Assembly (NCBI GenBank): GCA_048882485.1
Contig: JBHLRP010000021.1
Span: 1-56,648 of the forward strand
DNA length: 56,648 nucleotides
Reading direction: 5' to 3'
From: Candidatus Thorarchaeota archaeon
Lineage (GTDB): Archaea > Asgardarchaeota > Thorarchaeia > Thorarchaeales > Thorarchaeaceae
Below are positions 34,163 through 34,431 of the stretch, one piece after another. How positions within the stretch are numbered: the stretch's first letter is position 1; the number at the start of each line of letters is the position of its first letter. Made by a program: the position numbers and the translations under genes. Below the pieces are notes generated by a model. It had not been told where the DNA came from, did no database searches, and saw only the letters and a program-made list of their open reading frames with translations.

Positions 34163-34431
34163 TTGGAACACGTGTTCCAAGACGTAACACACCCCTTGAT
34201 TTCCATTAGAAACTTTTGAAAGTTTCGATACTTTTCGAAAAAGGTAAATATAAATATCGGTTTGCAAAGCTCGCATTCATCTCCATTTTATCATCATCAT
34301 TTTTTCACCGCTCTTGATCCTTCCATTTTATCAGTTCCAGTGGAAATGAAGGGGTGCCAGACCATAATATCTGGATATAGGATATATTAGTATGTTAGAA
34401 CACGTGTTCTATGGTATTATTTGTAATACGA
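34163..34431. other. Replication origin (oriC): palindrome, ORB, AT-rich DUE, ORB, palindrome
   Basis: Inverted ORBs at 34191-34213 (-) GTTTCTAATGGAAATCAAGGGGT and 34334-34355 (+) GTTCCAGTGGAAATGAAGGGGT flank an AT-rich tract; TCCATTTTATCA direct repeat at 34282 and 34322; palindromes at 34163-34180 and 34396-34411. Confidence 0.82.

Follow-up and report, generated by a model that had tools for sequence, protein, structure and literature searches.

The window analysed in this work is the whole of a 56,648-bp contig (C21) of a Candidatus Thorarchaeota assembly (G000), which comprises 3.96 Mb in 157 contigs and is 90.5% complete. The subject of the study is a non-coding element of this window, positions 34163-34412, located in a 369-bp intergenic region bounded by a small plus-strand gene (33875-34159) and by iorA. 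Archaeal replication origins consist of origin recognition boxes (ORBs) on the two sides of a DNA unwinding element (DUE), and they often adjoin an orc1/cdc6 gene. An initial annotation of the contig had proposed an origin of this anatomy here, uncoupled from its initiator gene, for which the cdc6 gene at 9884-11077 was taken, and carrying sites for further factors.

Anatomy of the locus

Two ORBs were identified in the element in inverted orientation. ORB-L (34190-34213) lies on the minus strand with its G-string at the left, ORB-R (34333-34356) on the plus strand with its G-string at the right, and both G-strings point away from the AT-rich tract between the boxes. Taken together the two boxes make up a 22-nt inverted repeat, the arms of which are 86% complementary and separated by 123 nt.

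The tract between them (34214-34332), the putative DUE, is 119 bp long and has an AT content of 68.1% as compared with 54.5% for the contig, which corresponds to the 99.7th percentile among all 119-bp windows of the contig, while the least stable 60-mer within the ORB pair is found at the 99.9th percentile. Two blocks of the tract are invariant in an alignment of 14 genomes: TATAAATA at 34249-34256, in the middle of the DUE, and the 11-mer ATCTCCATTTT at 34279-34289. The former being invariant and central to the unwinding element, transcription may start within the origin itself. The tract also holds the direct repeat TCCATTTTATCA (34282-34293 and 34322-34333), which has no further copy in the genome and the second copy of which is retained only in the subclade nearest to this genome. 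The inverted boxes with outward G-strings, the AT-rich tract of roughly 120 bp and the direct repeat had all been described in the initial annotation, and each of them was confirmed.

The ORB pair is bracketed by palindromes, as had also been noted. PAL-L (34163-34180) is an 18-bp palindrome, TTGGAACACGTGTTCCAA, 10 bp outside ORB-L, and PAL-R (34395-34412), with a GAACACGTGTTC core, lies 39 bp outside ORB-R; the exact 12-bp GAACACGTGTTC occupies 34166-34177 and 34398-34409. Nine exact copies of GAACACGTGTTC occur in the 3.96 Mb, while about 0.2 are predicted from the base composition. Four of these are on this contig, in addition to a one-mismatch copy, GAACATGTGTTC (PAL-0, 33856-33867), which is placed as an operator would be, with its end 8 bp upstream of the small gene's ATG. 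In nearly all of the Thorarchaeota loci the palindromes are found at the same offsets, i.e. about 300-320 bp before the end of the small gene, 10-30 bp after it, and beyond ORB-R. In a related genome (G004), three of the five exact palindromes are within approx. 135 bp of an ORB.

The possibility that the palindrome is the operator of a coherent regulon was considered and rejected, the genes beside the nine exact copies having no common theme (a deacetylase, an amino-acid kinase, a GlmS-like protein, MetRS, a ZIP transporter, an LRR protein and a hydrolase/thiolase were found among them). Since the palindrome is conserved and is tied to ORBs at three separate places, it is predicted to be a real site for a further factor, in agreement with what the initial annotation had proposed.

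Next to PAL-R, the element GTATTAT-TT-GTAATAC (34414-34429) contains one exact GTAWTAC copy at 34423-34429. The array of this motif claimed for the locus was thus only partly verified, as the companion of the exact copy is a near-copy 9 bp upstream. With this element as its second member, a field of 17 GTAWTAC sites starts at the origin and extends over 17.4 kb (33834-51255); there are 212 such sites genome-wide, and no other 18-kb window contains more than 4.

Uniqueness of the origin recognition boxes

The whole assembly was searched with the pattern TTCCASTGGAAAYSAAGGGG, allowing up to 2 mismatches, and only three matches were obtained, namely the ORB pair and a third site at 30128-30147, all of them within 4.2 kb. 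The control pattern, which was the reversed motif, had no match in the assembly. A weight matrix trained on the ORBs of the relatives only gave 39.6 bits for ORB-R, the top ORB score genome-wide, 39.5 bits for the third site and 36.8 bits for ORB-L, while the next score in the 3.96 Mb was 18.9. The third site, ORB3 (30126-30149, minus strand), is a full ORB at a distance of 4.0 kb from ORB-L. The genome-wide pattern, the matrix and the copy counts rule out chance as the source of the ORBs or of the palindromes. Since these are the sole full ORBs of the genome, no other candidate for a main origin is visible in it.

The site scoring 18.9 bits, ORB4 (CTCCACTGGAAGTCGAGGGG), is weak and was found on another contig (G000:C40:2469-2625, locus L240), 38 bp ahead of a start codon. 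An 80-bp AT-rich tract that includes TATAAATA comes next, then a perfect 14-bp palindrome, GGAACACGTGTTCC, and the same layout is repeated in G004 at about 1,698,049-1,698,200. The role of this locus may be that of a secondary origin or of a promoter under Orc1 control.

The putative initiator

The genome encodes two Orc1/Cdc6 proteins, one in the window (9884-11077, minus strand) and the other on contig C50 (G000:C50:11497-12741). The window gene is the nearer one, 23.1 kb from the origin, and no orc1/cdc6 gene adjoins the origin. In the initial annotation the window gene was regarded as the initiator gene, and such an assignment has several points in its favour. No other Orc1/Cdc6 gene is nearer, within the family it keeps a distance of about 20-24 kb from the origin, and two other Asgard genomes have its orthologue at 12-16 kb from ORBs. 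The protein retains the AAA+, lid and winged-helix domains according to Pfam, and Cdc6-2 of S. solfataricus, for its part, binds origins both in vitro and in vivo (PMC5333045).

The comparison of the two paralogues points in the other direction. The window Cdc6, classified by its Pfam Cdc6 domains, by NCBIfam NF001623 and by its ranking of the PDB structures, falls into an equivalog family other than that of the Orc1-1 type. Its best PDB match is 1FNN (197 bits), followed by 2QBY_A, the Orc1-1 of S. solfataricus (151 bits), 2V1U, the ORC1 of A. pernix (128 bits), and 1W5S, ORC2 (101 bits). The C50 paralogue passes NF001625 above the cut-off and reaches 330 bits with 2QBY_A and 325 bits with 2V1U, which are the two Orc1 proteins crystallised on ORB DNA. 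The closest non-Asgard match of the window Cdc6 is a Sulfolobaceae paralogue, 38% identical, and by its own PDB ranking this relative is neither Orc1-1 nor Orc1-3; therefore it is of the Orc1-2 type. In Saccharolobus islandicus, Orc1-2 is not an initiator and acts as a DNA-damage regulator (PMC9738581).

The surroundings of the two genes differ as well. No ORB-like sites were found near the window cdc6, the best matrix score across 8.7-12 kb being -15 bits, which agrees with the initial annotation, where no convincing ORB had been seen beside this gene. The promoter of the C50 gene, however, holds two tandem mini-ORBs without G-strings, CTCCAGTGGAAATCCAGTGGAAC (G000:C50:11444-11466; locus L005:1412-1434), located 31-53 bp upstream of the ATG and preceded by two CTCCAT half-sites, and these mini-ORBs are retained in 13 of the 16 other genomes of the genus. 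They make autoregulation of the initiator probable and give independent support to the prediction that the ORB core is read by the C50 protein. The presence of a further full origin at this gene was considered and rejected: there are only the two mini-ORBs lacking G-strings, and no AT-rich tract was apparent by eye, the AT content not having been computed.

On these comparisons the product of the window cdc6 is classed as Orc1-2-like and is not the predicted ORB-binding initiator, while the C50 gene is assigned as the orc1-1 orthologue and encodes the putative cognate initiator. It is thus unlikely that a real origin at this locus is served by the Cdc6 encoded 23 kb away. The uncoupling proposed in the initial annotation holds in so far as no orc1/cdc6 gene adjoins the origin, but the gene at 9884-11077 is not likely to be the cognate one. 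For this reason an electrophoretic mobility shift assay that uses the window's Cdc6 would start from the wrong protein. The practical correction is that the C50 Orc1-1, and not the nearby cdc6 product, comes first for binding assays.

Conservation of the locus and its uncoupling from the initiator gene

The inverted pair (140-144 bp from start to start) together with a single ORB about 4.1-4.3 kb off was found in all 16 other genomes of the genus that were searched, where fragmented assemblies were scored by whichever parts of the layout their contigs retain. The same layout is present in both other genera of the family, although one of them (G017) has a pair whose second ORB has degenerated but can still be seen. 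In the 14-genome alignment the two palindromes, the two ORBs, TATAAATA and ATCTCCATTTT stand out as invariant islands in otherwise diverged DNA. ORB-R is invariant throughout this alignment, and ORB-L and PAL-L are kept in 14 of 14 genomes. Further invariant blocks are ATAATAYCTG, TGTAWTAC and a 23-mer at 34451-34473.

Inverted ORB pairs were detected in other Asgard families too, and the layout is kept in the Odin-, Jord-, Frey- and Hodarchaeia, so that the full ORB-DUE-ORB anatomy suggested at the outset is conserved from genus to phylum. The palindrome is present in the loci of the Jord-, Frey- and Hodarchaeia and was not found in those of the Odinarchaeia in the same locus set. The closed 1.4-Mb genome G020, from the same phylum, has its ORB pair at 622.6 kb. 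The complete chromosome of a member of the Freyarchaeia (G031, CP147778.1) carries an ORB cluster at 1,639,071-1,640,012 of 3,576,204 bp, i.e. 46% along the record, accompanied by the small gene and a divergent orc1-1; one extra near-perfect ORB was found in this record at 287,377.

The position of the initiator gene varies among these genomes. Where relatives have long contigs, the ORB pair is followed after about 4 kb by ORB3, about 19 kb further on by the window-type cdc6, and after another 39 kb or so by orc1-1; the distance from the origin to orc1-1 is 62-65 kb in G005, G011 and G017. In five other Asgard families (represented by G019, G020, G023, G024 and G029) the Orc1-1 orthologue, 51-64% identical, is encoded 0.25-1.5 kb from the ORBs. 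When 67 loci of the small gene were compared, 11 loci outside the Thorarchaeota (from the Odin-, Jord-, Frey- and Hodarchaeia) had orc1-1 within 2.5 kb of it, and no Thorarchaeota locus did. Since orc1-1 adjoins the ORBs in the other Asgard classes, the linkage of origin and initiator gene is, on this distribution, ancestral and was lost in the Thorarchaeota lineage. A precedent exists in Aeropyrum pernix, where neither cdc6 gene adjoins its origins (PMC5333045); thus the adjacency of the initiator gene is not a defining property of oriC1-type origins.

The same comparison bears on the question whether the ORBs might be operators, through which Orc1 regulates the neighbouring genes (iorAB, the small gene and the saccharopine-pathway genes), or the remains of a dormant origin. 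Orc1 paralogues do act as transcription factors, as Orc1-2 does in the Sulfolobales (PMC9738581), and dormant origins are known in Haloferax mediterranei (PMC4595724). In this genome the mini-ORBs of the orc1-1 promoter, the position of ORB4 ahead of a start codon and the conserved TATAAATA in the spacer are in line with a regulatory role. Such explanations are nevertheless quite improbable: the inverted pair, the spacer length and the AT-rich core persist across several Asgard classes while the neighbouring genes change, iorA, the usual neighbour in the Thorarchaeota, being present in the flank of 51 of the 67 loci, mostly Thorarchaeota, and orc1-1 taking a neighbouring place in the 11 loci mentioned above. 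Moreover, with no full ORBs elsewhere in the genome, no other candidate for a main origin is in sight.

The small neighbouring gene

The small gene (33875-34159, plus strand), the 3' end of which faces ORB-L, encodes a protein of unknown family. The ATG at 33875, giving 94 amino acids, was taken as the start because the homologues are about 95 amino acids long. Altogether 142 homologues were found, mostly of this length; those with a name are designated "hypothetical protein", and none has a Pfam domain. The 94-residue protein itself had no match in Pfam or NCBIfam. Its profile matched only 15 clusters among 1.84 billion representatives, and against the PDB sequences it returned only chance-level phospholipase rows. 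A Foldseek search gave nothing at E <= 0.001, and in the protein atlas only unnamed archaeal clusters were obtained (scores 0.89-0.92), which can be regarded as leads only.

A full ORB was found within 450 bp past the 3' end of the small gene in 64 of the 67 loci, which come from the Thor-, Odin-, Jord-, Frey- and Hodarchaeia, and in G017, G019, G020 and G024 this 3' end faces the G-string of an ORB. An origin that carries a small accessory gene of its own could recall the origin of an integrated plasmid or virus. This origin, however, is in stable synteny with housekeeping genes across the genus and the family, no integrase or att-like repeats turned up in the annotated flanks, and the ORB agrees with the consensus universal to oriC1-type origins as well as with the Orc1-1 of this genome, which makes a mobile source of the module very improbable indeed.

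The structure of the 94-residue protein was modelled with AlphaFold2, which predicted a ferredoxin-like fold with a predicted local distance difference test (pLDDT) score of 88. Two β-hairpins are present in the model, of which one is strongly basic, and the first helix is basic and conserved; the residue D9, at the end of strand 1, is invariant. A beta-alpha-beta-beta-alpha-beta fold, an invariant Asp in this place and a homodimer characterise the Cas2/VapD-like ferredoxin-fold proteins. The structural matches are typical for the fold: TM1266, which is unrelated (Z 8.5), VapD 3ui3 (Z 7.1) and the C-domain of NikR (about 7). Cas2 structures were matched with similar values, 5h1o with Z 8.1 (root-mean-square deviation 2.4, 71 aligned residues) and 4es2 with Z 7.4, which are common for the ferredoxin fold, and no cas genes were seen when the annotated neighbouring genes were inspected.

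The modelled homodimer of the protein reached a score of 0.49, as compared with 0.00 for the best of three controls. Among proteins solved as same-chain pairs, 20 of 30 attained a score of 0.49, as against 1 of 23 among those solved as single chains. The contact agreement between the homodimer runs was 100%, the pLDDT of the partner was at least 87, and the interface in the model is made up of strand 1, residues 57-61 and the C-terminal strand. The protein is the leading candidate for the binding of the palindromes, although we consider this role possible rather than probable.

Comparison with known origins

The closest characterised system is oriC1 of Sulfolobus/Saccharolobus, which is organised as ORB3-DUE-ORB2 with Orc1-1 bound to it, and has an internal ucm motif with its binding protein UBP (PMC12141716, PMC3607249). 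Two ORBs around an AT-rich unwinding element and an Orc1-1-type initiator encoded in the genome are common to this origin and to the Thorarchaeota locus. Both have a short motif within the spacer, ucm in Sulfolobus and the invariant ATCTCCATTTT here, which are likened by position, the sequences not having been compared, and in both an extra sequence-specific factor is indicated. The Thorarchaeota locus differs in that the initiator gene does not adjoin it, and the extra sites are palindromes outside the ORBs and not a motif midway between them. No UBP chain was found among the PDB sequences matching the profile of the small protein (E up to 10) or among the structural matches listed, the genome itself not having been searched for UBP. 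The ubp gene is confined to the Sulfolobales and Desulfurococcales, and the same report closes by asking whether other lineages possess analogous origin proteins (PMC12141716).

In oriC1 of Aeropyrum pernix, four ORBs are arranged around the DUE and are bound by ORC1 (2V1U), the protein with which the C50 Orc1-1 gave the 325 bits mentioned above. A. pernix belongs to a different phylum, and a conserved flanking palindrome or small neighbour gene was not found mentioned for it, the A. pernix sequence not having been examined. The haloarchaeal oriC1 with oapABC (PMC7002104) resembles the Thorarchaeota locus in combining a canonical origin with conserved accompanying origin-associated genes. In the haloarchaea, however, the orc gene stays adjoining, oapABC is a cluster of three genes, and no homology was seen between oapABC and the 94-residue Asgard protein. 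A later report links oapA with a small GTPase of vesicle formation (PMC10927574).

As far as the literature searched goes, the origins of Asgard archaea have been predicted from GC skew only, in closed genomes of Odinarchaeum (PMC9246712) and of Atabeyarchaeia and Freyarchaeia (PMC11291895); a text search of these two papers found no mention of Cdc6 or Orc1. A survey of the Asgard replisome proteins (PMC12680538) does not describe origins. In the literature searched, neither a description of Asgard origins at the level of the ORBs nor one of an accessory cassette of palindromes and a small gene was found.

The proposed model

On the basis of the above results positions 34163-34412 are probably an oriC1-type chromosomal replication origin, the predicted initiator of which, Orc1-1, is encoded elsewhere, with a second factor acting at the palindromes. 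The copying of the Thorarchaeota chromosome very probably starts at this non-coding stretch. By analogy with Sulfolobus, Aeropyrum and Pyrococcus, monomers of the C50-encoded Orc1-1 would bind the two inverted ORBs, and the bound Orc1-1 would recruit MCM to the AT-rich 119 bp between them, where the DNA is expected to open. A second, probably dimeric factor would bind the 12-18-bp palindromes bracketing the ORBs. The orc1-1 gene would have retained the two tandem mini-ORBs of its promoter after its linkage with the origin was broken.

Judged from the sequence comparisons, the locus is an oriC1-type origin of canonical form, separated in the Thorarchaeota from its initiator gene, and is provided with a putative Asgard-wide accessory cassette. 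As a tentative and rather doubtful extension, the Asgard origin cassette could be formulated as palindrome-small gene-palindrome-ORB-DUE-ORB-palindrome, in which the dimeric 94-residue factor might bind the palindromes, autoregulate its gene via the palindrome at the start codon, control licensing or firing, and stay with the origin when orc1-1 leaves.

Several observations weigh against the origin assignment or the role given to the small protein. GC skew, when cumulated along the window, has a maximum plateau over 30-37 kb; such a plateau would fit a switch at the origin, but its polarity is the reverse of that customary for bacteria, and gene orientation confounds it. On the left side of the origin, the genes do not run in the direction of a fork travelling leftward. 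The G004 record (CP070658.1), the only one of the genus labelled "chromosome", is 2,579,137 bp long and contains 399 gaps of exactly 100 N, i.e. it consists of 400 joined contigs. Its genome-scale skew and gene-strand curves are therefore without long-range meaning; the maximum of the detrended skew is 3 kb from the ORB pair in this concatenated record. The organism is represented by metagenome-assembled genomes only, and since the assembly studied is 90.5% complete, further origins may be missing from it. Origins can be dispensable in some archaea, such as Haloferax volcanii (PMC4010727) and Thermococcus kodakarensis (PMC5663688). As to the 94-residue protein, no recognisable DNA-binding motif was found in it, and its structural matches are middling (Z 6.5-8.5).

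A sequence-defined candidate Asgard origin with canonical ORBs and a matching Orc1-1 is a testable system. It also documents an evolutionary event: the Thorarchaeota lost the origin-initiator linkage that is seen in the Odin-, Jord-, Frey- and Hodarchaeia.

Other features of the window

The invariant 23-mer on the plus strand at 34451-34473 (TTCCAGTACCACAAGGTTGATAG in this window, of the TTCCARTACCACAAGGTTGATA type) is situated about 55-80 bp upstream of iorA, and the ribosome-binding site of iorA, GGAGG, follows downstream at 34519-34523. The 23-mer is probably the core promoter of iorA. A search of 29.5-35 kb against Rfam gave no credible match, and a scan for sigma-70 promoters and terminators was at chance level, these models not being applicable to archaea.

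ORB3 is situated in a 470-bp non-coding region (29983-30453), which is strongly conserved across the genus. The region contains about nine TGTGAAT/ATTCACA motifs, and 6 of the 22 exact copies of the contig are located here; a second array of binding sites is one conceivable role for the region, a control region distal to the origin another. In this genome the stretch from ORB3 to the origin contains, at 31115-33870, two adjoining minus-strand genes, one AlaDH/PNT-like and the other encoding a saccharopine dehydrogenase domain, and this suggests that they are a split lysine-ketoglutarate reductase/saccharopine dehydrogenase pair. Just upstream of the window cdc6, on the minus strand at 11290-11410, there is a tRNA-like sequence, apparently with an insert.

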